A DNA stretch of 64,000 nt from an uncultured Clostridium sp. (GTDB taxonomy: Bacteria > Bacillota > Clostridia > Christensenellales > CAG-138): NCBI GenBank assembly GCA_964612925.1, contig CAZTFU010000001.1:81958-145957 (forward strand). Reading direction: 5' to 3'. Shown in pieces: positions 12,093 to 51,605 of the stretch. A program made the translations under genes and the position numbers. The notes beneath the pieces are model-generated. The model did not search any database, was not told where the DNA came from, and saw only the letters and a list, made by a program, of their open reading frames with translations. How positions within the stretch are numbered: the first letter of the stretch is position 1; the number at the start of each line of letters is the position of its first letter.

Positions 12093-12374
12093 AAGGCCCT
12101 CTGAGATAAGAAATACACGGTTTTGAGGTGCTATTTTGCACCCTGACTTTAGAAAAATGCTCGAAGATACGCCCCGGTATCTTACTGCGCTTTTTCTTCG
12201 TCATGGCACAAAATATCTACCTCAAAACTGCTTAGCACCTAAAAAGAGCAATGTTTGTGCCAAGCACAAGGCACGAGGGCGAAGCCATACCGGAGGCATG
12301 ACGAGGCCCGAGTAACGAAGTGATTGGCCAAACAGTGCCTTTTTAGGCGTATGTTTCTTACCTCAGAGGGCCTT
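12093..12374. repeat. 282-bp element bounded by a 24/27-nt inverted repeat
   Basis: AAGGCCCTCTGAGATAAGAAATACACG (12093-12119) matches the reverse complement of 12348-12374 (AAGGCCCTCTGAGGTAAGAAACATACG). A nested 10-bp inverted repeat pairs GTTTTGAGGT (12120-12129) with ACCTCAAAAC (12219-12228). Confidence 0.6.
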
Positions 12375-13588
12375 TTGGCAAGCTGCTTTTTCAGTGAGTC
12401 ATTGCGCTTTTGTAGTTCCTGCACGTCCTTTTCCGTGGCGGGTGTGCCGTCCTTGCGGGAGAAGCGTATGTCGGGATTGGTGTTGGTGTCTACAGTGCTG
12501 TCTATAGGTGCATATTGCCCCTGCGTTGGGTCTATCCATGCTATATCGTTGATATTAACGGTTTTTGAATAAACCTTGCCGCTTGCAGAGTAGCTTTCCG
12601 CTTCCATTTTTGACGGAGATACGAACACGCCATTGCCGATTTTGTTTGAGCTATAGACTGTTATGTTTCCGCTTTGAACCGCTTCCTCGGCCATTTGGCG
12701 CGTATAGTCGGGGTCGTATTCCGTATACTCGCTCCATTCGGGGTCAGTCAAGGTTTCCTCGAGCGTCTTTATCTCATCTGCACTTCTTATCCATGTATGA
12801 TAATCATCCTGCGCAGCATTGCTGTTCTGGATAACGGTAAACTGAGCTTCCTTTTGCGTTGTGGCGGTTTGTTCGGCAGAGTTCTTAGAAGATTGCTTGA
12901 CATTTTTGCTTGACTGCTTGTAATTTGATATTTTCTGTAGTATATTAACAACGGAAGGTGCATCCGTTACGGTACTCCGGGCTTTGATGCCAGAGCCGTT
13001 CTTGAAAGCGGATGCGCTTTCTGCTATTACTTCATGCAAATAAAAAGTATCCTCAGTGTTTGTTTTTTCTAACACAGCACCAACATAGTACAATTCATTT
13101 GCTAACGTTATAGGAGATGCAATTACCACAGTATCATATCCGCGACCTTTCCAGTTATACTGAACATCTACTATTTTGCCATGCTCGATGACGGCGGGCA
13201 CAGCCGCAAAAGCTGCCGCTTTGTTTCGTCCTATTCCATGGGCGATGTCGCTTTTGACGCCTGTTCTTGTAAGCTTAATTGTGCCGAGTTCGGGATTTAC
13301 CGCTTCACCGCCGATACTTTCAAAAAAGTTACTTACTTGCGTAACTAAGTCAGTATCGCCTTTTGCAAATTCGGTGCCTTTGATTTGGGCAACTGGTTGC
13401 ATATCTGCTACCGACTTATAGTTGCTTTCAATGTCAACTTTGCTTGCAAAATCGGGACTAAGACGCGGCGAAAACTTTATCCCACCTGCATCCCCTTCTG
13501 CGCTCTTCCCCTTCGTACTCTCCAATGCATCAAAGTACAACTCGGCAATTAAGTCAACCGCTTTCTGCTGAGTGCGTACAACCTCCAT
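12239..13588 (-). CDS. orphan internal fragment of a large mobile-element (phage/ICE) polyvalent-type protein; probable pseudogene
   Basis: The frame stays open and protein-like upstream of the first ATG to about 13745 (...TDEKQAKRFTDRIVNSDSTVRKWFEGIIEKIRSILKKAYDALKREKSWEQ-MEVV...) with no start codon or RBS. The last ~45 codons (from AKRPSEV) run into the inverted-repeat element and look non-native. Its modules resemble polyvalent-protein domains, recalled from memory only. Confidence 0.5.
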   Translation of the reverse strand: MEVVRTQQKAVDLIAELYFDALESTKGKSAEGDAGGIKFSPRLSPDFASKVDIESNYKSVADMQPVAQIKGTEFAKGDTDLVTQVSNFFESIGGEAVNPELGTIKLTRTGVKSDIAHGIGRNKAAAFAAVPAVIEHGKIVDVQYNWKGRGYDTVVIASPITLANELYYVGAVLEKTNTEDTFYLHEVIAESASAFKNGSGIKARSTVTDAPSVVNILQKISNYKQSSKNVKQSSKNSAEQTATTQKEAQFTVIQNSNAAQDDYHTWIRSADEIKTLEETLTDPEWSEYTEYDPDYTRQMAEEAVQSGNITVYSSNKIGNGVFVSPSKMEAESYSASGKVYSKTVNINDIAWIDPTQGQYAPIDSTVDTNTNPDIRFSRKDGTPATEKDVQELQKRNDSLKKQLAKRPSEVRNIRLKRHCLANHFVTRASSCLRYGFALVPCAWHKHCSF

Positions 13589-26865: not shown

Positions 26866-26942
26866 GGGGTTATAGCTCAGCTGGTCAGAGCGCTACGTTG
26901 ACATCGTAGAGGTCGTTGGTTCGATCCCAACTAATCCCACCA
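26866..26942 (+). tRNA. tRNA-Val (anticodon GAC), CCA encoded
   Basis: Hand-folded cloverleaf. Acceptor GGGGTTA/TAATCCC (one G-U pair), D arm GCTC/GAGC, anticodon stem CTACG/CGTAG with loop TTGACAT, T arm GTTGG-TTCGATC-CCAAC, then ACCA. Confidence 0.9.
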
Positions 26943-27126
26943 AAATAATCCTGCGGTGTGCGTAAGCTCCTGTGTATAAACCCACAGAATAACTACGGGA
27001 GCACGATTGTGTGGCAGATGTCGAGCCGGCTTGACCGGATGGCAGTAACCCAGCAGAGCGCACCCACCTGCCGAGAGGCGGGTGTTATATAAGGAGCTAC
27101 GGCATCTTGGGATTATAAGCATTCTT
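26943..27126 (+). ncRNA. structured 184-nt spacer between the two tRNAs; candidate unclassified small RNA
   Basis: End-to-end closing helix ATAATCC(T)/(G)GGGATTAT, hairpins CTGTG..CACAG, CCGG-CTTGA-CCGG and CACCTGCC-GAGA-GGCGGGTG (GNRA loop). GCTCC (26966-26970) can pair with either of two GGAGC copies. No class assigned. Confidence 0.3.
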
Positions 27127-27200
27127 TGCGGAATTGTGTAATGGTAGCACCTACGACTCTGACTCGTATTGTCTAGGTTCGAATCCTAGTTCCGCAGCCA
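27127..27200 (+). tRNA. tRNA-Gln (anticodon CTG), CCA encoded
   Basis: Acceptor TGCGGAA/TTCCGCA with the U1-A72 pair typical of bacterial tRNA-Gln. Anticodon stem TACGA/TCGTA with loop CTCTGAC, T arm CTAGG-TTCGAAT-CCTAG, then GCCA. Confidence 0.88.
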
Positions 27201-39362: not shown

Positions 39363-39414
39363 ACGTATTTACTTTTTGCATAAACAGTGATAATATAAGT
39401 ATTGAATTAAATAG

Positions 39415-39600
39415 ACTTTCATGTTCTGCTCCTTTTTGGGGCAGCTAAGAGGGAAGCAGGTTAAAGGCCTGCGCGGTCCCGCCGCTGTATGCGTGGAGCA
39501 TTTGTTATTTGCCGATAAACGGCAAAGTCACTGAGGTAAAACTTGGGAAGGCATAGCAATGTGCGATGAAACGTGAGCCAGAAGACCTGCTTGAAAGTTC
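39415..39600 (+). promoter_or_regulatory. cobalamin (B12) riboswitch
   Basis: Conserved core AGGGAAGCAGGTTAAAGGCCTGCGCGGTCCCGCCGCTGTA (39449-39488) and B12 box GAGCCAGAAGACCTGC (39575-39590). A long peripheral extension lies between them. Confidence 0.88.
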
Positions 39601-39683
39601 GCCTTACCACGGGTCAATGGTTCAGGGGCGGGGTTATACAATGTTTTGTGTGCCCGAATAGTTTTTTAATGTGCAGAAAAACG

Positions 39684-39714
39684 GCTGCGGCGATATCGCC
39701 GCAGCTATTTTGTG
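39684..39714 (+). terminator. riboswitch expression-platform terminator
   Basis: Perfect palindrome GCTGCGGCGATATCGCCGCAGC followed by TATTTTGTG, 33 nt upstream of the first operon ATG. Confidence 0.8.
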
Positions 39715-39746
39715 TACAAAAGAATATTGAAAGGAAGGTCGTATTT

Positions 39747-40505
39747 ATGAGATTTCGCAGAGTGTTGACGGCACTTATGGCGATATTGATGCTGGTAGCT
39801 ACAATGGCGGGCTGTAGCGTATTCGGCTCTTCGACACAAAGAAATGCGCTGGACGTTGATTACATCGGTGGAGAGGACGAGGGCGAAAACAGGCTGAACG
39901 AGTTAAAGGGGCTTGCGGCGCAAAACGCTACTCCTGAGCCTGACGGACAATTAAAAACTCCTGCGCCATTAAATCTTGACGATGATGACGATACGGAATC
40001 CGTAGGCAAGATACAGGCAGAGGCTAAAGAAAATGCCGATGTTGCCGCAACGGAGCTGCCGGAACAGACACCTGCTCCGACTGAGAACGGCGAACCGCAG
40101 ACAAATACTTGCACCATAACCATACGGTGCGATACTGCTGTTGCCAAAGGAATGCACCTTGAAAAGAAGTGGCAGGGCATAGTACCTGCAAGCGGAGTAA
40201 TACTGGCGGTAACGACTATGACTTTTGAACCGGGAGATACGGTATTTGACGTGATTTGCGATGTGCGCGATAAATTCAAGTTGCATATGGAATACTCCGG
40301 GGCAAAGGGCAATGAATACATAGAGGGGATAAACAACCTTTATGAGTTTGACGGCGGTAGATGGAGCGGATGGATGTACTGCGTGAACGGATGGTATCCA
40401 AACTACGGTTGCGGGCAATACGCCGTTAAAAGCGGTGATGTTATCGAGTGGAATTACACTTGCGACCTTGGTAAAGACCTTGGACAAACGTGGATGGCGG
40501 GCTAA
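39747..40505 (+). CDS. lipoprotein with a C-terminal DUF4430 (transcobalamin-like C-terminal) domain
   Basis: Signal peptide plus lipobox (LVATMAGC), a long acidic/Pro-rich linker, then DUF4430-like CTITIRCD...GDTVFDV...YIEGINNLYEFDGGRWSGWMYCVNGWYPNYGCGQYAVKSGDVIEWNYT. The start is at 39747 (GAAAGGAAGG RBS); the track's extension to 39573 overlaps the riboswitch. Confidence 0.8.
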   Translation: MRFRRVLTALMAILMLVATMAGCSVFGSSTQRNALDVDYIGGEDEGENRLNELKGLAAQNATPEPDGQLKTPAPLNLDDDDDTESVGKIQAEAKENADVAATELPEQTPAPTENGEPQTNTCTITIRCDTAVAKGMHLEKKWQGIVPASGVILAVTTMTFEPGDTVFDVICDVRDKFKLHMEYSGAKGNEYIEGINNLYEFDGGRWSGWMYCVNGWYPNYGCGQYAVKSGDVIEWNYTCDLGKDLGQTWMAG

Positions 40506-40509
40506 TGGG

Positions 40510-41202
40510 ATGACCAACGAAGCGATTAAGGTAAACGACCTTACAAAAACATACCTTGCGGGCAAGGAAGAGGTAAAGGCGTTGCGCGGCGTGAGCCTAA
40601 GCGTTGAAAAGGGCGAATTCATATGTATTGCGGGCAAAAGCGGCAGCGGGAAATCAACATTACTCAACCTTGTTGCGGGACTTGAAAGAGCGACATGCGG
40701 CGAAATAAATGTGCTTGGGCAACGGGTTGATCAAATGAACGAAACCGAAAGGATACGCTTCAGGCGAGCAAATATAGGTTTCATATTTCAATCGTATAGG
40801 CTGTTGCCGCAGTATACGGCGGTTGAAAATGTAGCTTTGCCGCTTATGCTTCGCGGAATAGGAAAAAAGGAACGTGAACAGCGTGCGATGGTCGCGCTTG
40901 ATCATGTGGGTATTGCAAAGTGCGCAAATCAGCGGCCATCACAGATGAGCGGCGGTGAACAGCAACGCGCAGGCATAGCTCGTTCGATAATTACGGAACC
41001 CGCAATAATACTTGCCGACGAACCTACGGGCAACCTTGATTCCTCTACCGGGGAAATGATATTGAAGCTTTTTCAAAAGCTTTTTCGGCAGAACGGAACA
41101 ACACTGCTTATCGTTTCGCACGATAGCGACATGCCGCGCCATGTTGACAGGACTGTATACATGAGTGACGGTGCATTAATTAATAAGGAGATAATCATAT
41201 GA
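40510..41202 (+). CDS. ABC transporter ATP-binding protein, MacB/LolD/FtsE family
   Basis: Walker A GKSGSGKST, Q-loop FIFQSY, signature MSGGEQQR, Walker B ILADEPTGNLD and an H-loop VSHD. The track's N-terminal extension overlaps the previous gene. Confidence 0.9.
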   Translation: MTNEAIKVNDLTKTYLAGKEEVKALRGVSLSVEKGEFICIAGKSGSGKSTLLNLVAGLERATCGEINVLGQRVDQMNETERIRFRRANIGFIFQSYRLLPQYTAVENVALPLMLRGIGKKEREQRAMVALDHVGIAKCANQRPSQMSGGEQQRAGIARSIITEPAIILADEPTGNLDSSTGEMILKLFQKLFRQNGTTLLIVSHDSDMPRHVDRTVYMSDGALINKEIII

Positions 41203-42965
41203 AAAGGGGCAAAGGGCTGATACTTATTCTTGTGACGGCAATAATGCTGTCAGCGATACCTGTATGTGCCGCCGAAAAGGTGGAATTGAGCTTTGACTGT
41301 GACCCCGCATATGCCGCAATAGAAATTACGGGTGGAAAGGCATACTTGGGCAACTATACCGTGCCCGGGGACGGAAGCTATTCATTCACCGCAACGGCGG
41401 ACGGGTATGAGGATTACAGCGGCACGTTTGACGTTCTTGACGGTAGGGTGTCGTTTAACGGCGTTGAGTGCGGAGGAAATGTTATACACATTGTAATGAA
41501 CAAGAAAACATACCCCGTGCTTATAACAAAGAATCCGTCAAGCATGACGCTTATTGTAACAGATGCCTACGGTAATGAGGTGGATGATACATCATATTTA
41601 AGCTCGGGAACATATCTGTATTCGGCTTACGCCGAAGGATACGAAAGTGCCGCGGGAAAATTCAGCGTTGAAAATGCTCCTACGGTATTAAATATATCAC
41701 TTAAAGCAGTTACACAGTCCGCACCCACAACAAGCGGCATAGGGGCACTTGCACTTGCACCCGCAAATGTTGCGGGAGAATACTACAGCGCGCCCGTTGC
41801 AAGCCCAAACGAAGTAATAAGTTTGTACCTACCCGTGATAAACAATGGCGAATCACTTACAGACATAACTATAGAACCCGTAGTCTCAAGCAATGTTGAG
41901 GAATTTCCGTTTGTGGCGGAGGTTGCAAATTACGGATTAAAGCTGCCTAACCTTGAAAACGGTGCATGGGCGGTTGCACAGTATACATTCAAGGTGTCTC
42001 CTTATGCTACAAACGGTGTAAAGACCGTTCAGTTCCGTGCAATATACCGTGAAAACGGAGTGCTAACCGAAAGCACATTAAGCGCAAGCGTAACGATAAA
42101 GAACGGATATGAAGCACCGCAAACATCTGTCGAGACCGCGCCGAGACTTATTGTAAGCGGCTATGCATTGGATAAGGAAACCGTATACGCGGGAGAAGAT
42201 TTTGTGCTTACACTGTTTGTGAAGAACACATCCGCCTCAAATGAGGCAATGAACGTTACATCTTCACTAACGCTTGACCCTTCGGCTGTTATGCCGTCGC
42301 TTGGGCAGAGCGATATAAACTTTGCTTCATCGATAAAGCCCAATGATACGGCAGAACTTTCGTATAAGTTGACCGCAATGGCCGACATACAGGGCAATGC
42401 ACAGATAGCCATAAAGCTTGATTACGATAACGGGGAAGGGATAACGGGAAGTTCCTCCCAAACAATAACGTTACCGATAAAGCAACATATGCGAATAAGC
42501 GTTGATTCTCCCGAGATTTATGCGGACGGTGCAAAGGAGGGAGAGCTTATTGCTGTGTCTCTTCCCATTATAAATAAAGGAAAGACCAAGGCATACAATG
42601 TTGAAGTTAAGCTTGAAAGCGCAAAGCTTGCCATGCAGGAAGGGTATTTTGGCGGCGACATACTGCCGGGCGCAAAGCACAGTGCGGAATTTCAACTGCT
42701 TTGCCTTGAGGGAGGACTTGCCGAAGGGGTGCTTACGGTGAGTTTTGAGGATGCGGAAGGCAATACATATGAACAAAGCGTTGATTTGTCGGTAAATATT
42801 GATTATGTGGCAACGCAACCCGTACAAAGCAATATAGAGGAGGTACAGAAGGAAGCCGATACCGCGGCTTGGCCGATAATTATATGTGTAGTTGCGGGCA
42901 TTGCCGCTGTGGTCATAGCCTTGCTGTTTATTATAAAGAAGGGGAAACGAAATGCGGATAGGTGA
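41199..42965 (+). CDS. surface protein with PEGA-like and CARDB/COG1361-like beta-sandwich repeats and a C-terminal TM anchor; ABC accessory
   Basis: Signal peptide, two Y/G-rich PEGA-like modules, three ~110-aa repeats of the form 'L.LP..N.G...A.N' and a terminal hydrophobic helix plus KKGKRNADR. Translationally coupled on both sides. Confidence 0.6.
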   Translation: MKRGKGLILILVTAIMLSAIPVCAAEKVELSFDCDPAYAAIEITGGKAYLGNYTVPGDGSYSFTATADGYEDYSGTFDVLDGRVSFNGVECGGNVIHIVMNKKTYPVLITKNPSSMTLIVTDAYGNEVDDTSYLSSGTYLYSAYAEGYESAAGKFSVENAPTVLNISLKAVTQSAPTTSGIGALALAPANVAGEYYSAPVASPNEVISLYLPVINNGESLTDITIEPVVSSNVEEFPFVAEVANYGLKLPNLENGAWAVAQYTFKVSPYATNGVKTVQFRAIYRENGVLTESTLSASVTIKNGYEAPQTSVETAPRLIVSGYALDKETVYAGEDFVLTLFVKNTSASNEAMNVTSSLTLDPSAVMPSLGQSDINFASSIKPNDTAELSYKLTAMADIQGNAQIAIKLDYDNGEGITGSSSQTITLPIKQHMRISVDSPEIYADGAKEGELIAVSLPIINKGKTKAYNVEVKLESAKLAMQEGYFGGDILPGAKHSAEFQLLCLEGGLAEGVLTVSFEDAEGNTYEQSVDLSVNIDYVATQPVQSNIEEVQKEADTAAWPIIICVVAGIAAVVIALLFIIKKGKRNADR

Positions 42966-44229
42966 CCTTATACGCACCGGCGCAATAAATCTGTACAGAA
43001 GGCGTGTAAGGACGGCACTTACGGCATTGAGCATGGCTGTCGGCGTGATATGCATACTTATGCTTGTTTCGGTGGGCATAGGCTACGAGCAGGCATACAG
43101 GGAATCGATAGAAGCCATGGGCAGCCTTACAAAAATAGATGTTACGCAGAAGAATTCGTCCGCAACAAGGGTGGCGGTGCTGAATCAAAAGGCCGTTAAC
43201 GCCTTTGCGGGAATAGACGGTGTGGAGGCGGTAACACCGGTACTGCAAACAACGGCATACCTGAAAAGCGGGAAATACATAACAATGGTCAAACTGTACG
43301 GCATTGATATGAATACCGCACAAAGCTTTGGAATAACCCCGTTGCGCGGTGAGTTGCCTAAAAAGGGCACACGGTTGATGCCCCAGCTTCTTGCAACGGA
43401 TGACCTTGCAGCAAGCTTTGCGGATCCCGATACATGGAAAGAAGCCGTTGACTCAAGCGGTGAAGCGATAGTTGACCTTATGCGAAGTAATCTGAAGCTT
43501 ACCTTTGATTATGCAAGCCTTGTGGGGGATTATACCGAAGGTGATGACGGCAGGGCGGTTCCGCTTGGTCAAAGCCTGAAGGCGAACGTTACGGGCATTT
43601 GCAGTGCAATGAATTACACATATTCATGTTCGGCATTTATGGATATGGAAACGCTTAGCGAAATAAGCGATTCGGTGCAATCGAAAAACGGCAGTTCGAC
43701 TGAATACTCGCTTGTGTGGGTAAAGGTAAGCGAAGCGGATGATGTTATGGACATTGCCGCACTGATACGCGGCGCGGGGTTTGAAACATACAGCCTTACC
43801 GATATGCTTGATTCCGTTAAGGAACAGACCGAGCGTATACAGGGTCTGCTTTTTGCAATAGGTGCGGTTGCACTGCTTGTGGCGGGGCTTTGTATAGCAA
43901 ATACAATGATGATGGCCATAAACGAAAGGCGCACGGAGGTTGGCATCCTTAAGGTACTTGGCAGCGAATTAAAGGACATAGCGGCCATGTTCTTAACGGA
44001 AGCGGCAATGATAGGCATAATAGGAGCGTTTATGGGCATAGGCGTAAGCTTTGCGTTAAAGGCGGCATTAAATGGTTTGTTTGAAGAAATGGGCATAAGA
44101 TCCGTGTTGCCGATATGGCTTGCGGCATTTGCACTTGCATTTTCCGTGCTGGTTGCGGTACTCAGTGCGCTTGCCCCTGCGGTAAACGCAATGCGAATAT
44201 CCCCACTTTGCGCCATGCGAGATGAATAG
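42952..44229 (+). CDS. FtsX/MacB-type ABC transporter permease
   Basis: N-terminal TM (RTALTALSMAVGVICILMLVSVG), a ~250-aa extracytoplasmic domain, then three C-terminal TMs with the FtsX-family motif (ERRTEVGILKVLG). Confidence 0.88.
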   Translation: MRIGDLIRTGAINLYRRRVRTALTALSMAVGVICILMLVSVGIGYEQAYRESIEAMGSLTKIDVTQKNSSATRVAVLNQKAVNAFAGIDGVEAVTPVLQTTAYLKSGKYITMVKLYGIDMNTAQSFGITPLRGELPKKGTRLMPQLLATDDLAASFADPDTWKEAVDSSGEAIVDLMRSNLKLTFDYASLVGDYTEGDDGRAVPLGQSLKANVTGICSAMNYTYSCSAFMDMETLSEISDSVQSKNGSSTEYSLVWVKVSEADDVMDIAALIRGAGFETYSLTDMLDSVKEQTERIQGLLFAIGAVALLVAGLCIANTMMMAINERRTEVGILKVLGSELKDIAAMFLTEAAMIGIIGAFMGIGVSFALKAALNGLFEEMGIRSVLPIWLAAFALAFSVLVAVLSALAPAVNAMRISPLCAMRDE

Positions 44230-44246
44230 GTAACGGAGGTGGACAT

Positions 44247-47120
44247 ATGAAAAACATAAAAAGGTTTATAGCGGCAATACTTACCGTGTTAATGCTTTTG
44301 GGCAGCTTCAGCGCATATGCGCTTGAAGGCGAAAGCTATACATCGGGAGAGCAAAAGCTGCTGCTTTCGGTACAGGAAGCGATTCAACAGGGTGCAGCTT
44401 ATATGCTCAACCCCGTTGGCAACTATTATCCTGAAAACGGTTTATCATTCGGCACACTTCAGGGAGACTGGGCGGCCTTTGCGCTTGGCAGAAGCGGTCT
44501 TGCAATACCTTATGACGTGTGGGAAACATATGCGGAAAATTCAAAGGACGATATTGTTGCCGCAATAAAAAAGGTACAATCCGAACACGGTGACATAACA
44601 TCACTTCCGCTTCTCCATTACAGAAAACGCACGGAAAACATGCGCGCGATAATCGGCTACACATCGGTAGGTTTGGATCCGACAAACGTTTCGGGTTATG
44701 ACATAACGCGTGCACTCGGCAACTATACGGATATAATTTGGCAGGGTATAAACGCGACCATATTTACGCTCATTTCGCTTGATACGCTTGGCTATGAAAT
44801 GCCCGAATTGACCGCGGAAGAACTTTCACAGGGTGTACACGGCACGGCGGTTCAGGCCACAAGAGAAATGCTTGTAACGCGCATAATGGCGCAGGAGCTT
44901 CCGGGCGGCGGCTGGGTGCTTGATACAGGCTTTGAGGTTGAGGATGATCCGACTTCGGGAGATATTACCATGTCTACCGATAAAGCCGACCCTGATATTA
45001 CCGCAATGGCAATACAGGCCCTTGCGCGGTACAGCGAGGATACCGTTTATGTAAACGGCACCGAAAAGAAGGTCGGTGACGCGATAGAGCGGGCATTGAA
45101 TGTATTAAGCTCAATGCAGAAAAGTGCTGGCGATTTCGAATCATGGGGCACAACAAACGTTGAAAGTACGGCGCAGGTGCTTATGGCACTTATTGCCATG
45201 GGTATAGATCCACTTGAGGACGAAAGATTTATAACCTCAAGCGGAAACACATTGCTTAACGGCATTTTGAAATACCATGTTTCAGGTTCGGGTTTTAAGC
45301 ATATTGCCGATGGTAGCGTAAATGCAATGGCCACGGATCAGGCAATGTATGCCCTTGTAGCATATGACAGATATCTCAAGGGTCAAAACTACATATATAA
45401 CATGAGCGACAATAAGACCGCCCATGCGATTTTACTTAATGAAAGCGAACACGGCACGCTGAGCTTATCAGCAGACAGCGCTTCGCAAGGCGAAAATGTA
45501 ACGGTTTATGCACAGGATACGGACGGATATTCTCTGAGTGATGTAAAGGTATATCTCTATCAATCCGAAATAAGCTTTGTAAACAATAAGATGGTCGTTT
45601 CGTGGGAACTTACGCCAACATATCAGCAGGCAGATATAAGTACGGATGGCCTAAGTGCTACGTTTACCATGCCCAATGTACCTGTTGTCGTAGTTGCCGA
45701 ATTCAGCGAAAACGGCCAATCGGCCGAAAAATACGAATTCATACAAACGAGCGTGAACGGCACCGTGCGAGTGTCTAAAGAAAGCGCGTCGGCAGGCGAA
45801 ACCGTGCTTATAAATCCGAAGCCCCTGTCAGGCTATGAATACGTTGATGGCAGCATAAGCGTAACGGATCAGAACGGAAATGCCATATCGCTTACGGCAA
45901 ACGCAAGCGGCGGTTATGAATTCACAATGCCTGCGGGCAACGTGACACTGTATGCTGAGTTTGAAGCGGTAAAGCTTATAGGTAGCGTGACCATATCGGT
46001 TGAAAGGTTCACAATAGGTAAGGGCTACGCCATTGAACCCATGCAGGTAGATCTATATCAGAACGACAGCGTTGCAAGTATAGTGACCCGTTTGCTTGAT
46101 GAGTATGACATGCCCTATACGCTTGGGCCGGGTGCAAGCGTTGAAAGCGGCTTCTACCTTGCAAGTATTACCGACGGAAGCGATCCGAATGAGCCGATAG
46201 AACCATTCGATTATATTGTCGAAGCAATAGAGGACGAATACGGCGAATTGAGTTACACACGCGACGGGGAGAGCCTTGGTGAATTCGACTATGCACAGCA
46301 GTCGGGCTGGATGTATTCGGTAAACGGTGCATTCCCCAATTACGGTGCATCCGACTACAATACAACATCCAAGGTAAATCCGCTTAAGGACGGAGACGTT
46401 ATCCGTTGGCAGTTCACATTATGGGGACTCGGCAAGGATATAGGCGGCGGATTTGACGGCGATGAGGCTGCGGGTACATTTGAGGGTTCATATATAACCA
46501 TAGCGGAAAGAACCGCCGCAACAAGCACCATAGCCGATGTAAACAGCAACTATTCATCTTGGGTGGCTACAAATCGTTCTGTCTATGATGCGGCAGTAAA
46601 CGCCATGTGCGACCTTACATTGAGCGAAACGGAGCTTAATGCCGCCATAAAGCCCCTGCGCACCATGCTTGCGGCGAATAAGGATGAGTTCAGGATAATT
46701 CTTCCCTACAGCGCGGCCGCAAACGGACATACTATATCAACTCCCGCAACGGCAAAGGCGGGGGACGACGTGACGGTTACCGTAACGCCAAAGAACGGGT
46801 ATGAGCTTTATCTCGGCAGCCTTAAAGCGAACGGCGTAAAGCTTACTAAGCGTGGCACATCTTATACATTTGTAATGCCGAGTGAGGATGTTGCGATAAC
46901 GGCAAGCTTCTGCACAGAAGGCACGGGACCCAAGGTAGTGCAGGGCGATGTGAACGGCGACGGCACACTTAATACGATAGATGTGGCGCTCCTCTGCCGC
47001 TATCTGACGGGGCAGGTCGAGCTTTCAAGCGATGCTATATCCCTTGCCGATATGAATGAGGACGGCAAGGTGACCATTGCTGACGCAATACTGCTGTGCA
47101 AACGTATTGCGGCAAACTGA
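44247..47120 (+). CDS. secreted dockerin-bearing protein with an alpha/alpha-toroid (prenyltransferase/transcobalamin-N-like) domain, beta-sandwich repeats and a DUF4430 domain
   Basis: Signal peptide; QxxxGGW-type toroid repeats (AQELPGGGWVLD, MQKSAGDFESWG); DUF4430 (SGWMYSVNGAFPNYGASDY...LKDGDVIRWQFT, about 45970-46450). The C-terminal type-I dockerin has two Ca-binding loops, DVNGDGTLNTID and DMNEDGKVTIAD (46944-47117). Confidence 0.8.
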   Translation: MKNIKRFIAAILTVLMLLGSFSAYALEGESYTSGEQKLLLSVQEAIQQGAAYMLNPVGNYYPENGLSFGTLQGDWAAFALGRSGLAIPYDVWETYAENSKDDIVAAIKKVQSEHGDITSLPLLHYRKRTENMRAIIGYTSVGLDPTNVSGYDITRALGNYTDIIWQGINATIFTLISLDTLGYEMPELTAEELSQGVHGTAVQATREMLVTRIMAQELPGGGWVLDTGFEVEDDPTSGDITMSTDKADPDITAMAIQALARYSEDTVYVNGTEKKVGDAIERALNVLSSMQKSAGDFESWGTTNVESTAQVLMALIAMGIDPLEDERFITSSGNTLLNGILKYHVSGSGFKHIADGSVNAMATDQAMYALVAYDRYLKGQNYIYNMSDNKTAHAILLNESEHGTLSLSADSASQGENVTVYAQDTDGYSLSDVKVYLYQSEISFVNNKMVVSWELTPTYQQADISTDGLSATFTMPNVPVVVVAEFSENGQSAEKYEFIQTSVNGTVRVSKESASAGETVLINPKPLSGYEYVDGSISVTDQNGNAISLTANASGGYEFTMPAGNVTLYAEFEAVKLIGSVTISVERFTIGKGYAIEPMQVDLYQNDSVASIVTRLLDEYDMPYTLGPGASVESGFYLASITDGSDPNEPIEPFDYIVEAIEDEYGELSYTRDGESLGEFDYAQQSGWMYSVNGAFPNYGASDYNTTSKVNPLKDGDVIRWQFTLWGLGKDIGGGFDGDEAAGTFEGSYITIAERTAATSTIADVNSNYSSWVATNRSVYDAAVNAMCDLTLSETELNAAIKPLRTMLAANKDEFRIILPYSAAANGHTISTPATAKAGDDVTVTVTPKNGYELYLGSLKANGVKLTKRGTSYTFVMPSEDVAITASFCTEGTGPKVVQGDVNGDGTLNTIDVALLCRYLTGQVELSSDAISLADMNEDGKVTIADAILLCKRIAAN

Positions 47121-47175
47121 CGGTATTATTGCCGAAAGGCTTTAATATAGAAATCCGGGAAAGGAAGGAAAACAA

Positions 47176-50100
47176 ATGAAAAAAAGAGTATTGGCATTTA
47201 TACTCGCACTTGTTATGGCGCTTTCATTGCCGATAATGGCAATAGCGGAAGGCGATACGCAGGTGGAAGTCAGTGCCGAACAGCAGGACGTAAGCGTTCC
47301 TGCGGCGCCGGAAGAAAGCGGCGAAGAAGGACAAAACGAATCGGCGGAAACTACCGAAGTTGCCGTTGATGCGGAAACATTTATGGGTTCTGCGGACGTT
47401 GCGGCGGCAAACCAGTTCAGCAAGCTGCGCGTACAGCTCGGCTTCGGCGTTTATGCTGAAGAAGACTATCTTCTGAAGAATGAAGGCGAAAGCTATCAGA
47501 CGGACAACATATTTGATCCGACCGTTTACAATTACGACTTTGGCGCAATAAGCAAGGAAGTTGTAAACAGGGCGTCCAATCAGGTTCGCTTTGCTTATTC
47601 GGCCGCGGAAGGTGCATCCGTAAAAATTCATTATACTGATGAAAACGGCAATGCCACCAGCAAGGATGGAAGTGCGCTTAACGATTCGTCCAACACCGAC
47701 TGGGTAAAGACTTACGATGGTGAAAACATAATTAAGCTTGTGCTTACTCCGCCCGCTGACAGCGGTCTTAGCGCAACCACCTACACCATAAAGCTTTATG
47801 TCGGTGAAAAGCCCGCAGAACCCGCAAAGGTAAAGGTATACATATCCTTCAGCGATAACGGAAGTTATAATTTCCCTTATGGCAAAACCGAAGTTACTGC
47901 GGTTGAAGGTACTGCCGAAAAATACGGCCTTAGCAATGCCGATGCCGACCATACCGTAGGCGGACAGAATCACGGCATATCCGCAGGTCAGGTAAGCGTG
48001 CTTGATGCGGTTGTCAGCGCACATGAGGCACTGTATGGAAGCGCATTTACCAAGGCGACCATGGACTCATATCTTGATGCAGGCGGCGGCAGCTATATAA
48101 GCAAGATGTTCGGCGTAAGCGGCAGCATCAGCTTTGCCGTAAACAATCGCCTGCCCATGGGTCCGAAGAGCGATGGGTATGCCATAAACGAATATGCCGT
48201 TTCCGAGGGTGATGACATTGTGTTCTTCATCTACGGCGGTTCGTGGTGGGACGATTATTTCTGCTATTTTGACAAAAAGCAGGTAACCGTTAAGGAAGAT
48301 GAAGAAATAAAGCTGAACCTTGAAGGCTTCTATGCCATGGAGCAGCTTTGGGGCAACCCCGGTACGGATACCCCTGCACTCGATTCCCTTGAGAAGATCA
48401 AGAATGCCATTATTGTATTGCTTAAGTATGACGATGACCTCGGTTCATGGAATATGGACGGTTATGTATACGATGAATATGATGATCCTGTCGTAACCGA
48501 TTCCAACGGCGATGCGAAGTTCAAGTTTGACAAAGCCGGAACATACTATGTCAGCGCAATGGGCACCTCGTCCTCCGGAGCTTATATATCTCTTCCGTGG
48601 TGCGAAATAACCGTTACGGAAAACACAAATAAGCCCAAGGGCAACGACCTTAACGGTATGCTCATTTATACCGGCTACAGCAAGAATAATGACAGCGTAA
48701 TGGTGCGCAACGAAAGCGACAGCTACACAACGTCAAACGTATTCGCATGGAATAAGTACGAATATAGTTTTGAAGTTGCAGATACCGTAACTCAGCTCCG
48801 CTTTAATCTTAACCTTGCGGACGGCGCAAAGGCAACGCTACACTATACCACCACTACGGGTTCCGAGGCAACAAAGGATGCCACAAATTCCGCATCCAAT
48901 GCCGCGTGGATAAACTGCATACAGCCTGGCAAAAACGTTGTTAAGGTTGTTGTAACTCCTCCCGACGGCAGCGGTCTTTCCGAAAAGACATACACCATAA
49001 ATGTCGATTGTAAGCCCACGCTCACCGCACTTTCCGTTGCAAACGGCAGTACGGAGCTGATACTTGATTCGACGTTTAAGAGCACTACCCTCGAGTATAG
49101 TGCGGACGTTGATGCGGCGGCAGAGGTTCTTACCGTTTCCGCAACGGCCAAGAACACAAGCTGCACCGTTACTTATAACGGTAAGGCCGACAACAATGTT
49201 GACGTAAAGGATACCGATAAGATAGTTATCCGCGTTGAAAAAGACGGCCTGTACACCGAGTATGCGGTAAAACTGAATAAAAAGACCGCTTATTCGGCAA
49301 AAATTGAAACCTACCCCGCAAATGCCGTTGTACGCATGGAAGATTCCAAGGGTACGGCACTTGATACTGATTCGGAAGGCGCATATGCAGGTCTGTTGCC
49401 GGGTGCCGAATACAAGTTTGTTGTATCCTGCAAGGGCTATGTGACAAAGACCGGTACTCTCAGTGATCCGGCTCAGCTCACCAACGGTGTGCTTAGCGTG
49501 ATTCTTTCCGCGGCGCCTGCGTCCAATCTGACCGATTATGACGCGGAATGGCCCACATTCAGGAACAGCGAAAACAACAACGCCGTGACCTCGACCGTAA
49601 CTCCCGACAGCGCCGAAAATGCGGAGCTTAAATGGGCCAAGAAGTACGGTTCGGGCTGGAGTGCTTCTCCATCTATACCCATTATAGTAAATGAGCATGT
49701 TTACTTCATTATGGACAAAAAGATATACTGTGCAAGCAAAGAAACAGGTGAAATCGAAGCCGAAGGTACACTCAACGGTGGTGCAGGTTACAGCACCAAT
49801 TCCATCGTATATGCGGAAGGCATGATATTTGCACAAGTGGGTAGCGGCAAGATACAGGCGTTCCGTGCCGATACGCTTGAAAGCCTGTGGGTATCCGAAT
49901 CAATAGGCGGCGGACAGACCATATCTCCCATAACCTATTACAACGGATATATCTATACGGGTATGTGGGGCGGCGAAACCAAGGCTTCGGACTTTGTTTG
50001 CTTCTCAATAACCGATGAAGATCCCAACAGCACGAATGAAACCAAGTACGCCACATGGAAGGTTTCTCACCTTGGCGGTTATTACTGGGTGGGCGCGTAT

Positions 50101-51021
50101 GTCAATGACGTTTGCGCCGTATTCGGTACGGATGACGGTACCTCAAAGGCTGACAGCCCCACGGCTGATCTCTATTCCGTAAATCCCACTACCGGCAAGA
50201 TAATAGACAATATCTCCGAGATTAAAGGTGACGTGCGTTCCTGCGTAACATATGATTCGGGCAGGGTATACTTTACCACGAAGGGCGGTTATCTGTACTC
50301 CGTCGGCCTTAACTCAAACGGCACGTTTGATCATGATTCCGTCAAGTGCATCCAGATAGACAGCATGTCCACCAGCACGCCCGTTGTGCATAACGGCAGG
50401 CTGTATGTCGGTTGCTCAGGCAAGGGCTATGACTGGGACGGCGATTCCGGCTCAGGCATTGTCGTGGTTGATGTATCCGGCGGCAAGCTCGATATCATTT
50501 ACAAGGCTTCAACTCCCGGTTATCCCCAGGCGGGTCCGCTTGTAAGCACCGCGTTTGAAAAGGCGACCGGCAAGGTATATGTATACACCACCTACAACAG
50601 TAACCCCGGCGGTATCTACATTATAGAAGACAGTGCGGGACAGACCGAGCCGAGTGAAAACAACGGTGACTTGTTCGTACCGGGAGACGGCCAGAAGCAG
50701 TATTGCATAAGCACCATTTGCGCTGACAGCGAGGGTACTCTGTACTATAAGAACGACTCCGGCCACCTGTTTGCCATAAAGAGCAATGCCGTGCTGCCCA
50801 AGCTCCCCGAGGAAGAGGAGACTGATGACACGGATAATGATTCGTCTTGGCCCGGCGGAAGCGTGTTTGGCCCCGGCAGCAACTCAACCACGCCCACTCC
50901 CGTACCGCCCACGGTGCTTATGCCCGTTACAGGCGGCGAAGAAAGCATTGTTCCCGCAATAGTGCTTATTGCGTGCGGTGCGGCCCTGATGCTTGTGCTC
51001 TGGCGCAAGAGAAGGATATAA
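47176..51021 (+). CDS. 1281-aa sortase-signal surface protein with cadherin-like beta-sandwich domains, a divergent DUF4430-like module, a PEGA-like domain and a PQQ-like beta-propeller
   Basis: Signal peptide. Cadherin-like sandwich modules lie at about 47410-47820 and 48640-49280. A DUF4430-like module lies at about 47820-48360 (VLDAV...SISFAVNN...YAVSEGDDIVFFIY). The WPTFRNSENNNAVT propeller start and repeated blades span about 49534-50784. The C-terminal sorting signal is LMPVTG plus a hydrophobic helix plus RKRRI. Confidence 0.8.
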   Translation: MKKRVLAFILALVMALSLPIMAIAEGDTQVEVSAEQQDVSVPAAPEESGEEGQNESAETTEVAVDAETFMGSADVAAANQFSKLRVQLGFGVYAEEDYLLKNEGESYQTDNIFDPTVYNYDFGAISKEVVNRASNQVRFAYSAAEGASVKIHYTDENGNATSKDGSALNDSSNTDWVKTYDGENIIKLVLTPPADSGLSATTYTIKLYVGEKPAEPAKVKVYISFSDNGSYNFPYGKTEVTAVEGTAEKYGLSNADADHTVGGQNHGISAGQVSVLDAVVSAHEALYGSAFTKATMDSYLDAGGGSYISKMFGVSGSISFAVNNRLPMGPKSDGYAINEYAVSEGDDIVFFIYGGSWWDDYFCYFDKKQVTVKEDEEIKLNLEGFYAMEQLWGNPGTDTPALDSLEKIKNAIIVLLKYDDDLGSWNMDGYVYDEYDDPVVTDSNGDAKFKFDKAGTYYVSAMGTSSSGAYISLPWCEITVTENTNKPKGNDLNGMLIYTGYSKNNDSVMVRNESDSYTTSNVFAWNKYEYSFEVADTVTQLRFNLNLADGAKATLHYTTTTGSEATKDATNSASNAAWINCIQPGKNVVKVVVTPPDGSGLSEKTYTINVDCKPTLTALSVANGSTELILDSTFKSTTLEYSADVDAAAEVLTVSATAKNTSCTVTYNGKADNNVDVKDTDKIVIRVEKDGLYTEYAVKLNKKTAYSAKIETYPANAVVRMEDSKGTALDTDSEGAYAGLLPGAEYKFVVSCKGYVTKTGTLSDPAQLTNGVLSVILSAAPASNLTDYDAEWPTFRNSENNNAVTSTVTPDSAENAELKWAKKYGSGWSASPSIPIIVNEHVYFIMDKKIYCASKETGEIEAEGTLNGGAGYSTNSIVYAEGMIFAQVGSGKIQAFRADTLESLWVSESIGGGQTISPITYYNGYIYTGMWGGETKASDFVCFSITDEDPNSTNETKYATWKVSHLGGYYWVGAYVNDVCAVFGTDDGTSKADSPTADLYSVNPTTGKIIDNISEIKGDVRSCVTYDSGRVYFTTKGGYLYSVGLNSNGTFDHDSVKCIQIDSMSTSTPVVHNGRLYVGCSGKGYDWDGDSGSGIVVVDVSGGKLDIIYKASTPGYPQAGPLVSTAFEKATGKVYVYTTYNSNPGGIYIIEDSAGQTEPSENNGDLFVPGDGQKQYCISTICADSEGTLYYKNDSGHLFAIKSNAVLPKLPEEEETDDTDNDSSWPGGSVFGPGSNSTTPTPVPPTVLMPVTGGEESIVPAIVLIACGAALMLVLWRKRRI

Positions 51022-51050: not shown

Positions 51051-51605
51051 ATGGGGTTTCGGTATAAAAACATGAGCACTGATGTGAGCATTGATGAATA
51101 CATCGATGCCTGCGTTGATGTGCCGCGTATAATAAAAGGGTGCCAAGGCTGTACGAATTACGGAAGGCTTTGGTCCTGCCCGCCGTTTGCCTTTGACCCC
51201 GTTATGATTTGGCGCAGTTATTCACGGCTTAGGCTATATGCAAGAAAGGTCATGCTGCCCTGTGAGCTTACCCAAAGAACATACGGAGAAAGCGAACTTT
51301 CAGACGAATACTTCAGAATATGGAAGGTTGAACGCAGGAATTTTTTCAACGAGCTTTTGGCTCTGGAACGAGCCGAACGCGACAGCCGCGCCTTGGTAGC
51401 GGGCTGTTGCGACATATGCAATGAATGTGCGCGTTTAAGCGGAACGGCGTGCACGGCACCCGAAAAGCTGAGATATTCGATAGAAGCACTCGGCGGGGAC
51501 GTTGAACGCACGCTGAACCTTTATTTCGGTGAAAAAACACTTTGGGCAAAGGAAGGACACATGAGCGAATATATGTTGCTCGTTGGTGCGCTTATGCTGA
51601 AATGA
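51051..51605 (+). CDS. DUF2284-family predicted metal-binding (Cys-rich) protein
   Basis: CQGCTNYGRLWSCPP and CCDICNEC...C motifs are characteristic of DUF2284. GGAGG sits 10 nt upstream. Last gene before the terminator. Confidence 0.7.
   Translation: MGFRYKNMSTDVSIDEYIDACVDVPRIIKGCQGCTNYGRLWSCPPFAFDPVMIWRSYSRLRLYARKVMLPCELTQRTYGESELSDEYFRIWKVERRNFFNELLALERAERDSRALVAGCCDICNECARLSGTACTAPEKLRYSIEALGGDVERTLNLYFGEKTLWAKEGHMSEYMLLVGALMLK

Follow-up and report, generated by a model that had tools for sequence, protein, structure and literature searches.

The uncultured Clostridium sp. of NCBI GenBank assembly GCA_964612925.1 (Christensenellales; CAG-138) harbors, in a stretch of 64,000 nucleotides of contig CAZTFU010000001.1 (referred to below as the window, whose coordinates are used throughout), a gene at 44247..47120 (+ strand) that encodes a secreted protein of 957 residues. 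The protein is composed of an alpha/alpha toroid, two immunoglobulin (Ig)-like repeats, an SLBB domain (also named DUF4430), a helical linker, a third Ig-like repeat and a type I dockerin. We consider, with moderate confidence, that it is a capture protein for corrinoids (vitamin B12) that belongs to a bacterial transcobalamin-like family and is held at the cell surface via its dockerin. Corrinoid capture is the best-supported function because cobalamin riboswitches are conserved in the family, because transporters of the energy-coupling factor (ECF) type are neighbors of the gene in relatives, and because the operon encodes a paralogue of the SLBB domain. Binding of corrinoids by the protein itself would follow, by analogy, from its fold, from the family-wide pairing of its domains and from its regulation by B12.

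An earlier note on this DNA, made from the sequence alone, had described a transcobalamin-like architecture fused to a dockerin and had proposed a vitamin binder as the cargo of a cohesin scaffold. The combination of a toroid with an SLBB domain has been known since 2007, when Burroughs, Balaji, Iyer and Aravind (Biol Direct 2:4; PMC1796856) defined the SLBB superfamily and described Gram-positive proteins in which a toroid is fused, in either order, to an SLBB domain of the transcobalamin clade and accompanied by Ig, FIVAR, fasciclin and beta-propeller modules. These authors also noted operons that encode CbiO/CbiQ along with another SLBB protein, and they proposed that animal transcobalamin was acquired from such Gram-positive bacteria. 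Because scavenging of B12 by toroid-SLBB proteins was predicted in that work, the core interpretation of the earlier note is a rediscovery. The protein described here shares with the 2007 family the signal peptide, the toroid, the transcobalamin-type SLBB domain and extra Ig-type domains, as well as a co-encoded extracellular paralogue of the SLBB domain, i.e., the lipoprotein encoded by the first gene of the operon. The contexts described there include Ig, FIVAR, fasciclin, beta-propeller and LPXTG elements and CbiO/CbiQ (ECF), whereas the operon in the window encodes an ABC system of the MacB/FtsX type. The words “dockerin” and “riboswitch” are absent from the main text of that paper (“cohesin” was not searched for there).

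Domain Architecture

The open reading frame (ORF) is present exactly as listed. Its product begins with MKNIKRFIAAILTVLMLLGSFSAYA, followed by LE, which is a plausible Sec signal peptide (residues 1–25, with cleavage between AYA and LE; 44247..44321, + strand), recognized by reading the sequence rather than by a predictor and modeled as a helix at residues 2–25.

The toroid, with repeats of the prenyltransferase type, extends over residues 27–398 (44325..45440, + strand). It is weakly supported by Pfam, because the match to SQHop_cyclase_C (residues 239–324, E 0.002) scores 17.7 bits, i.e., under the cut-off of 26.1 bits. Among the NCBIfam models only weak cyclase matches were obtained (e.g., TIGR01787, 21.2 bits at a cut-off of 322.7 bits), in addition to a match to the dockerin end of CelK. 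At the level of the predicted models, the toroid is confirmed by AlphaFold2 and by the alpha/alpha-barrel matches found with Foldseek, and the family profile is consistent with it. The protein also matches proteins annotated as SQHop_cyclase_C or Prenyltrans, with E values down to 1e-150. Across 76 homologues, 15 residues of the toroid are invariant and about 50 are nearly so; GGW...DPDITAM..AL and GDF.SWG...ES.AQ are conserved motifs that resemble hairpin repeats of the prenyltransferase type.

Between the toroid and the SLBB domain, residues 399–575 (45441..45971, + strand) form two Ig-like beta-sandwich repeats of the InlB B-repeat type, which are all-beta in both structure models discussed below. 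A third such repeat is found at residues 815–890 (46689..46916, + strand) and is preceded by a three-helix linker at about residues 769–810 (helices 769–775, 777–788 and 794–810 in the model). Pfam Flg_new_2, which describes InlB B-repeats, matches the protein in two stretches (E 1.1e-24), of which the best, at residues 821–888, is the only one located; the other presumably lies in the region of residues 399–575.

The SLBB/DUF4430 domain, which is folded like the beta domain of transcobalamin, was placed at residues 579–736 (45981..46454, + strand) by iterated hidden Markov model (HMM) searches. It was also recognized by Pfam (DUF4430, residues 677–724, E 2.4e-9, 38 bits at a cut-off of 23.8 bits), in the structure model and by Foldseek. 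The anatomy given in the earlier note is thus borne out. Its toroid motifs QELPGGGW and QKSAGDFESWG are present at residues 216–223 and 291–301, respectively, the toroid (pLDDT >90, see below) and a DUF4430 domain above the Pfam cut-off coexist in one protein, and the latter resides downstream of the beta-sandwich repeats. The chain ends, as that note had also stated, in a textbook type I dockerin, which is discussed below.

Structure Models and Comparison with Transcobalamin

The first AlphaFold2 model covered the whole protein, at a mean predicted local distance difference test (pLDDT) score of 74. It comprises a toroid with pLDDT >90 over about residues 100–380, beta-rich repeats, the three-helix linker and a confident dockerin. 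The SLBB/DUF4430 region was poor (pLDDT <50) because the alignment was dominated by homologues in which the SLBB domain precedes the toroid, such that about ten rows covered it. A second model, of residues 27–745, was made from an alignment rebuilt from homologues in which DUF4430 follows the toroid; here, the mean pLDDT was 80.5 and the predicted template modeling (pTM) score 0.69, with the DUF4430 domain at pLDDT 85–94.

A Foldseek search with the first model returned terpene cyclases, beta subunits of prenyltransferases, transcobalamin and intrinsic factor alike, with E values from 3e-4 to 6e-3. With the second model, transcobalamin occupied ranks 2–7, of which 4zrp_A was second in the list (E 7.4e-7, 722 columns) and was followed by 7qbe_C, 7qbg_C, 7qbf_A, 2bb6_A and 2bb5_A. 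Intrinsic factor was also in the list (3kq4_A, E 1.4e-4; 2pmv_A, E 1.7e-3). Because the alignments span about 720 query columns, both the toroid and the beta domain are aligned, in order. Superposition on transcobalamin yielded a root-mean-square deviation (rmsd) of about 22 Å and a template modeling (TM) score of about 0.44, normalized to transcobalamin, with approximately 180 residues inserted between the domains. These values imply that the two domains in the model are not placed as in the closed sandwich of holo-transcobalamin.

Sequence comparison offers a narrower likeness. A phmmer search of the Protein Data Bank (PDB) with the whole protein returned only dockerins, and the PDB chains of transcobalamin and intrinsic factor were found neither in this search nor with the family profile. 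Judged by sequence, only the beta domain can be assigned to the transcobalamin family; the beta domain of eukaryotic transcobalamin also belongs to Pfam DUF4430 (PMC4350170). The order of toroid followed by beta domain is shared with the eukaryotic carriers transcobalamin, intrinsic factor and haptocorrin (2bb5, 4zrp, 2pmv and 3kq4). In contrast to these carriers, the bacterial toroid has no sequence match to the eukaryotic alpha domain, and the protein adds the Ig insert of about 180 residues as well as the C-terminal linker, Ig repeat and dockerin. By analogy, a cohesin would serve as the receptor in place of CD320 or cubilin in animals.

The earlier note had invoked the two-domain logic of transcobalamin, likened the toroid to that of transcobalamin and suggested superposition of a predicted structure. 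The order of the domains, both folds and the top Foldseek matches agree with that view and the two domains do align, but closure of the cleft was not reproduced. The likeness of the toroid is one of fold; its sequence consists of prenyltransferase/squalene-cyclase repeats and has no match to Cobalamin_bind. It is plausible that the protein works in a transcobalamin-like manner.

Probable Regulation by a Cobalamin Riboswitch

A cobalamin riboswitch aptamer is found at 39404..39608 (+ strand) as a full-length match to Rfam RF00174 (101.6 bits, E 2.9e-24). Downstream of the aptamer, and upstream of the first start codon, resides a terminator-like stem-loop with a T-rich tail (39683..39716, + strand). 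Its stem, GGCTGCGGCGATATCGCCGCAGCT (39683–39706), has 10 pairs, 8 of them GC, and is followed by the T-rich ATTTTGTGTA; the hairpin is the probable expression platform of the riboswitch. Six genes on the same strand then follow at 39747–51021, separated by overlaps or by gaps of at most 55 nucleotides, and a seventh begins after another 29 nucleotides; the gene of interest is the fifth. No convincing terminator was found between the genes of this seven-gene cluster, which would accordingly be co-transcribed. Because the genes are tightly spaced on one strand and free of an internal terminator, we infer on good grounds that the toroid protein is controlled by the riboswitch, as the earlier note had assumed.

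The first gene of the cluster (39747..40505, + strand) encodes a 252-residue lipoprotein with the lipobox MAGC and a C-terminal DUF4430/SLBB domain (Pfam DUF4430, E 7.2e-19). This domain displays 39% identity to residues 572–741 of the toroid protein (BLASTP, E 8e-15), i.e., the two are paralogues. In the mechanical ORF list this gene opens at a GTG within the riboswitch (the 39573–39746 stretch). The gene truly begins with the ATG at 39747, downstream of GAAAGGAAGG, which was read as a ribosome-binding site, and this start yields the lipoprotein signal.

Conservation in the Family

Orthologues of the protein (P0002–P0007) display 71–91% identity, and the closest match among species-representative genomes, at 74% identity, is found in Christensenellaceae bacterium Phil1 (locus L001). 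A search with the toroid only yielded 4983 cluster representatives at E<=1e-3, 1193 of them at E<=1e-30. Hundreds of distant relatives carry this toroid together with DUF4430, SLH, Big_2, CW_binding_2, FIVAR, Listeria-Bacteroides repeats, sortase signals or dockerins. An SLBB domain is also carried by 197 of the 253 collected toroid homologues and by 111 of the best 150 representatives of the toroid-only search. Among these 150, the commonest order has the SLBB domain before the toroid, and the transcobalamin order of the protein described here is in the minority. In Paenibacillus and relatives (P0009–P0038, e.g., L025:10001-15007), the proteins are SLH-anchored, have 1300–1670 residues and carry two SLBB domains. 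The alignment consensus suggests that they also have two toroids, and a cobalamin riboswitch is found upstream and an ECF module next to these genes.

The orthologous operon is retained together with its riboswitch in L001, L002, L003 and L027. In more distant loci, a cobalamin or AdoCbl riboswitch is located directly upstream in L022 (two copies), L023, L024, L025, L026 and L029, and in L030 a cobalamin-type riboswitch is cut by the end of the contig. In total, a cobalamin-type riboswitch was found in 11 of the 12 loci scanned. The exception is L031, where none was detected at the gathering threshold despite the same order of toroid-dockerin, cohesin, DUF4430 and ECF genes.

An ECF module (CbiQ, a fused double ABC ATPase and an ECF S component) and extra DUF4430 proteins are found beside the toroid genes in L022–L026, L029 and L031. 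The ECF type is a transporter shown to import B12, as ECF-CbrT. Where these relatives have an ECF module, the clade of the window harbors a MacB/FtsX-type ABC pair and a 588-residue protein; no neighbors of the CbiO/CbiQ type were found in the operon of the window. Such neighbors usually accompany the family and are not obligatory for it.

The Dockerin and Candidate Cohesin Partners

The dockerin covers residues 897–957 (46935..47117, + strand) and was recognized by Pfam (Dockerin_1, residues 900–954, E 7.5e-13, 48.9 bits at a cut-off of 22.9 bits), by phmmer against the PDB (2ccl_B, E 5.6e-8, and other dockerins) and by Foldseek, where the modeled domain matches the C. thermocellum Xyn10B dockerin 2ccl_B at a TM score of 0.90 and an rmsd of 0.7 Å. 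Both F-hand calcium loops follow the canonical pattern DxNxDGxxxxxD, i.e., DVNGDGTLNTID (residues 900–911) and DMNEDGKVTIAD (933–944). It is the sole dockerin motif in the window and is well conserved (71–91% identity) in all seven full-length orthologues. In a wider sample searched by iterated HMM, a C-terminal double F-hand module was found on 55 of the 253 collected homologues and on 14 of the best 150 toroid-only representatives. Upon inspection of their sequences, the modules of relatives are dockerin-like and of a divergent subtype (Pfam E 8e-6 to 0.012).

In five Clostridia loci, the toroid gene with a dockerin is directly followed by a gene for a protein that has 206–225 residues, an N-terminal membrane anchor and a single cohesin, referred to here as a mini-cohesin (L022:11704-12381, L023:3181-3816, L029:10753-11388, L030:3293-3913 and L031:9756-10397). 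All five are uptake loci of the ECF type, and all except L031 bear a riboswitch. Two of the mini-cohesins match positions 11–127 of the 139 in the Pfam Cohesin model, slightly short of the cut-off (E 5e-5 to 9e-5); that of L031 has a precomputed Cohesin match, and the five are clearly orthologous. A search of the PDB with a profile made from the five sequences returned only cohesins at E<1, seven chains in total: 5nrm_A (8.1e-5), 5nrk_A (~8e-5) and 5lxv_A (0.0024) at E<0.01, then 4dh2_A, 1aoh_A, 4uyp_A and 3kcp_A. The mini-cohesin family comprises more than 100 clusters, including cultured Terrisporobacter proteins annotated as cohesin domain-containing. Judging from these sequences, the B12 operons of relatives would mostly encode a private cohesin-dockerin pair that holds the toroid protein at the membrane beside the transporter.

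Like secreted components of the cellulosomes and amylosomes of C. thermocellum and Ruminococcus bromii, the protein is exported and terminates in a canonical type I dockerin whose F-hand is duplicated. In contrast to these systems, the partner in relatives is a single-cohesin membrane protein of the same B12 operon and not a multi-cohesin scaffoldin. The idea of the earlier note that a dockerin may carry a vitamin binder to a cohesin is therefore upheld in part: a mini-cohesin adjoins the gene in five related loci, but searches of the 64-kb window revealed no cohesin. Its suggestion of delivery to a cellulosome- or amylosome-like scaffold is not supported, since the single-cohesin membrane proteins of relatives point to a dedicated tether. 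The same note had regarded this as an unusual, non-carbohydrate use of the scaffold. The cargo is indeed not a carbohydrate-active enzyme, but dockerins outside carbohydrate-active proteins were already known: one is attached to a “putative terpene cyclase” of R. bromii (Ze et al. 2015, PMC4611034). This R. bromii protein probably belongs to the toroid family. R. bromii cannot make B12.

Proposed Mechanism

In the proposed sequence of events, scarcity of B12 would allow the riboswitch to permit read-through of the terminator and the seven-gene cluster to be expressed. The toroid protein would then be exported by means of its signal peptide, and its toroid and SLBB/DUF4430 domain would bind a corrinoid in the manner of the two transcobalamin domains, with either its own SLBB domain or that of the lipoprotein as the possible partner of the toroid. 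By analogy with the relatives that have mini-cohesins, the dockerin would dock on a cohesin-bearing surface protein encoded outside the window. In a final, speculative step the corrinoid may be handed to the SLBB lipoprotein and the MacB/FtsX-type ABC system, rather than to the ECF transporter of most relatives.

A broader proposal, which we put forward tentatively and regard as rather unlikely, is that the operon constitutes an undescribed Gram-positive apparatus for acquisition of B12. Here, the binder would be plugged in by a cohesin-dockerin contact, and a mechanotransmitting ABC system of the MacB/FtsX type, together with the CARDB-like and beta-propeller proteins, would replace the ECF transporter and power release or hand-off of the vitamin. 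In this proposal, Clostridia would use cohesin-dockerin pairs throughout the family as a dedicated tether for vitamin capture, and the B12 operons would supply private mini-cohesins.

A functional logic of this kind, in which gut anaerobes capture B12 at the surface with high affinity and under riboswitch control and pass it to a membrane transporter, would be shared by analogy with BtuG and BtuH, which are reportedly surface B12-binding lipoproteins of Bacteroides (Wexler et al. 2018, eLife; Putnam et al. 2022, mBio). The folds of these proteins are unrelated to that of the toroid protein and they reside in a Gram-negative envelope, where BtuG is a beta-propeller lipoprotein on the outer-membrane BtuB. 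The beta-propeller protein encoded by the sixth gene in the window recalls BtuG by description only, and this likeness is putative.

Weighing the Alternatives

Several observations weigh against a surface-held corrinoid capture protein. A known B12 importer (BtuCDF or ECF-CbrT) was not found in the operon or elsewhere in the window, and we know of no MacB-type ABC system that is an importer. Because the functions known of MacB-type systems are extracytoplasmic and do not include import, the B12 importer is probably encoded elsewhere. A cohesin was not found, in jackhmmer/hmmsearch searches with the mini-cohesin family, among the six-frame ORFs of the 64-kb window or of L001–L004, L027 and L028. 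With respect to the fold, toroid and SLBB domain are about 180 residues apart and the closed transcobalamin sandwich is not reproduced in the model; Cobalamin_bind is not among the Pfam matches of the protein (E<=0.01), and the profile of 76 homologues matches the squalene-hopene cyclase 1gsz in the PDB (E 1.5e-5). In the literature, we found no experimental characterization of the toroid family except in Lactobacillus sakei, where a split pair of alpha-like and beta-like proteins has been linked experimentally to heme uptake (bioRxiv 10.1101/864751).

Of the alternatives, the one that survives best, yet which we judge unlikely, is that the protein binds B12 and is released as a soluble “corrinophore”, with a dockerin that has no cohesin partner in this organism and that would act only as a calcium-stabilized module or would bind the 588-residue or 1281-residue beta-sandwich protein of the operon. 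The searches above found no cohesin in either the window or its orthologous loci. With Pfam, Cohesin was not found in the proteins of the operon (for the 588-residue and 1281-residue proteins even at E<=10) or in 20 further ORFs of the window; about ten ORFs lay outside the Pfam scans, and the mini-cohesin HMM covered all six-frame ORFs. In addition, the dockerin subtype of the window clade is canonical, unlike that of the dockerins that adjoin mini-cohesins, and L024 also has a canonical-looking dockerin with no cohesin found nearby. Many genomes without cohesins are reported to encode dockerin-like modules nonetheless (Peer et al. 2009). Against release of the protein stand the conservation of the dockerin in all seven full-length orthologues, with calcium loops intact, and the cohesin gene adjoining the dockerin gene in five related loci; moreover, the search of the window covered 64 kb of the genome.

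A second alternative, which is quite improbable, retains the capture function and assigns it to another tetrapyrrole (heme) or to a corrinoid precursor instead of cobalamin itself. In L. sakei, Lsa1839 and Lsa1840 are secreted proteins that resemble the beta and alpha parts of transcobalamin and whose genes adjoin those of an ECF transporter; deletion and complementation of this operon altered heme uptake (bioRxiv 10.1101/864751). In contrast to the protein described here, the two domains are found on separate proteins and no dockerin has been reported. Burroughs et al. also allow for “B12 or its precursors” as the ligand (PMC1796856). The operon in the window and ten other loci of the family carry cobalamin-type riboswitches, which sense B12, and the Pfam matches of the operon include nothing related to heme; both argue against such a ligand.

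An alpha/alpha-barrel enzyme or carbohydrate-binding protein at the surface (terpene cyclase, prenyltransferase or glycoside hydrolase/lyase-like), delivered by its dockerin as cargo of the cellulosomal type, would be in line with the weak squalene-cyclase matches in Pfam and NCBIfam, the match of the family profile to squalene-hopene cyclase, the label of the R. bromii dockerin protein and the Foldseek lists, which also contain drimenyl diphosphate synthase, the farnesyltransferase beta subunit and barrels of the GH105 and GH88 types at similar scores. Such a role, as terpene cyclase or prenyltransferase in particular, is nevertheless very improbable, because the protein is secreted and thereby apart from isoprenoid diphosphate substrates, because its SQHop_cyclase_C and TIGR01787 scores are below the family cut-offs, because residues 248–251, which we take to correspond to the DxDD position of squalene-hopene cyclase, read DPDI instead of the class II cyclase motif, and because the toroid is paired with SLBB domains throughout the family and is under control of a B12 riboswitch; furthermore, transcobalamin outranks the enzymes in Foldseek once the SLBB domain is well modeled. 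From the above discussion, capture of a corrinoid at the cell surface is a reasonable functional reading of the protein, with a cohesin link that is supported in relatives.

Implications

The dockerin anchor, and the adjacent mini-cohesin in relatives, appear to be undescribed in the literature searched. No description of such a dockerin/cohesin arrangement in a B12 operon, in Christensenellaceae or elsewhere, was found there, the nearest being the “putative terpene cyclase” of R. bromii. Competition for B12 shapes gut communities, and in Bacteroides the proteins that capture it (BtuG, BtuH) have been studied well. In Firmicutes, B12 capture is known almost solely from the computational prediction of 2007, and the locus described here and its relatives provide concrete targets. 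A bacterial counterpart of transcobalamin with the same domain order also bears on the proposed Gram-positive origin of the animal protein. The arrangement suggests that cohesin-dockerin contacts, which are best known from cellulosomes, routinely tether vitamin binders. Because the two partners are encoded by adjacent genes in Terrisporobacter species (e.g., L031 and P0277–P0304), the interaction is directly testable in cultured organisms. In addition, genome annotations in which these toroid proteins are named terpene cyclases or prenyltransferases are probably wrong.

Other Genes of the Operon and Window

The second gene of the cluster (40510..41202, + strand) encodes an ABC ATPase of the MacB/Lol type (Pfam ABC_tran, E 2e-36), which corresponds to a 230-residue gene product in the orthologous locus L027. 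The fourth (42952..44229, + strand) encodes an FtsX/MacB-type permease with a MacB periplasmic core (Pfam FtsX, E 4e-20; MacB_PCD, E 8e-11) and with NCBIfam matches to MacB, LolC and LolE. The third gene (41199..42965, + strand) is located between these two and overlaps both; its 588-residue product is an exported protein with CARDB-like beta-sandwich repeats (Pfam CARDB, E 2.9e-5) and a C-terminal membrane anchor. We found no literature that links systems of the FtsX type to B12 riboswitches.

The gene downstream of that of the toroid protein, i.e., the sixth (47176..51021, + strand), encodes a 1281-residue surface protein with cadherin-like beta-sandwiches and a beta-propeller of the PQQ_2 type (Cadherin-like, E 8e-12; PQQ_2, E 3.6e-7). 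Its C-terminus is of the sortase type, composed of MPVTGG, a hydrophobic stretch and RKRRI, and the gene is conserved in the orthologous operons of L001, L002 and L027. A further SLBB domain, the third, was considered at about residues 215–365 of this protein and rejected (BLASTP E 0.24). Searches of the PDB revealed no sequence relatives of the 1281-residue protein, the 588-residue protein or the lipoprotein. The cluster ends with the seventh gene (51051..51605, + strand), which encodes a cysteine-rich, predicted metal-binding protein (Pfam DUF2284, E 2.9e-18) and is found at the same place in L027. It is followed by the terminator of a convergent glycyl-tRNA synthetase gene (51715–51686).

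Elsewhere in the window, a tRNA, 6S RNA and tRNA cluster is located at 26866–27197, and the same arrangement is found in L001. A 449-residue protein encoded at 12239–13588 (− strand), among housekeeping genes, carries an LPD3 (large polyvalent protein-associated) domain and could be the relic of a mobile element.

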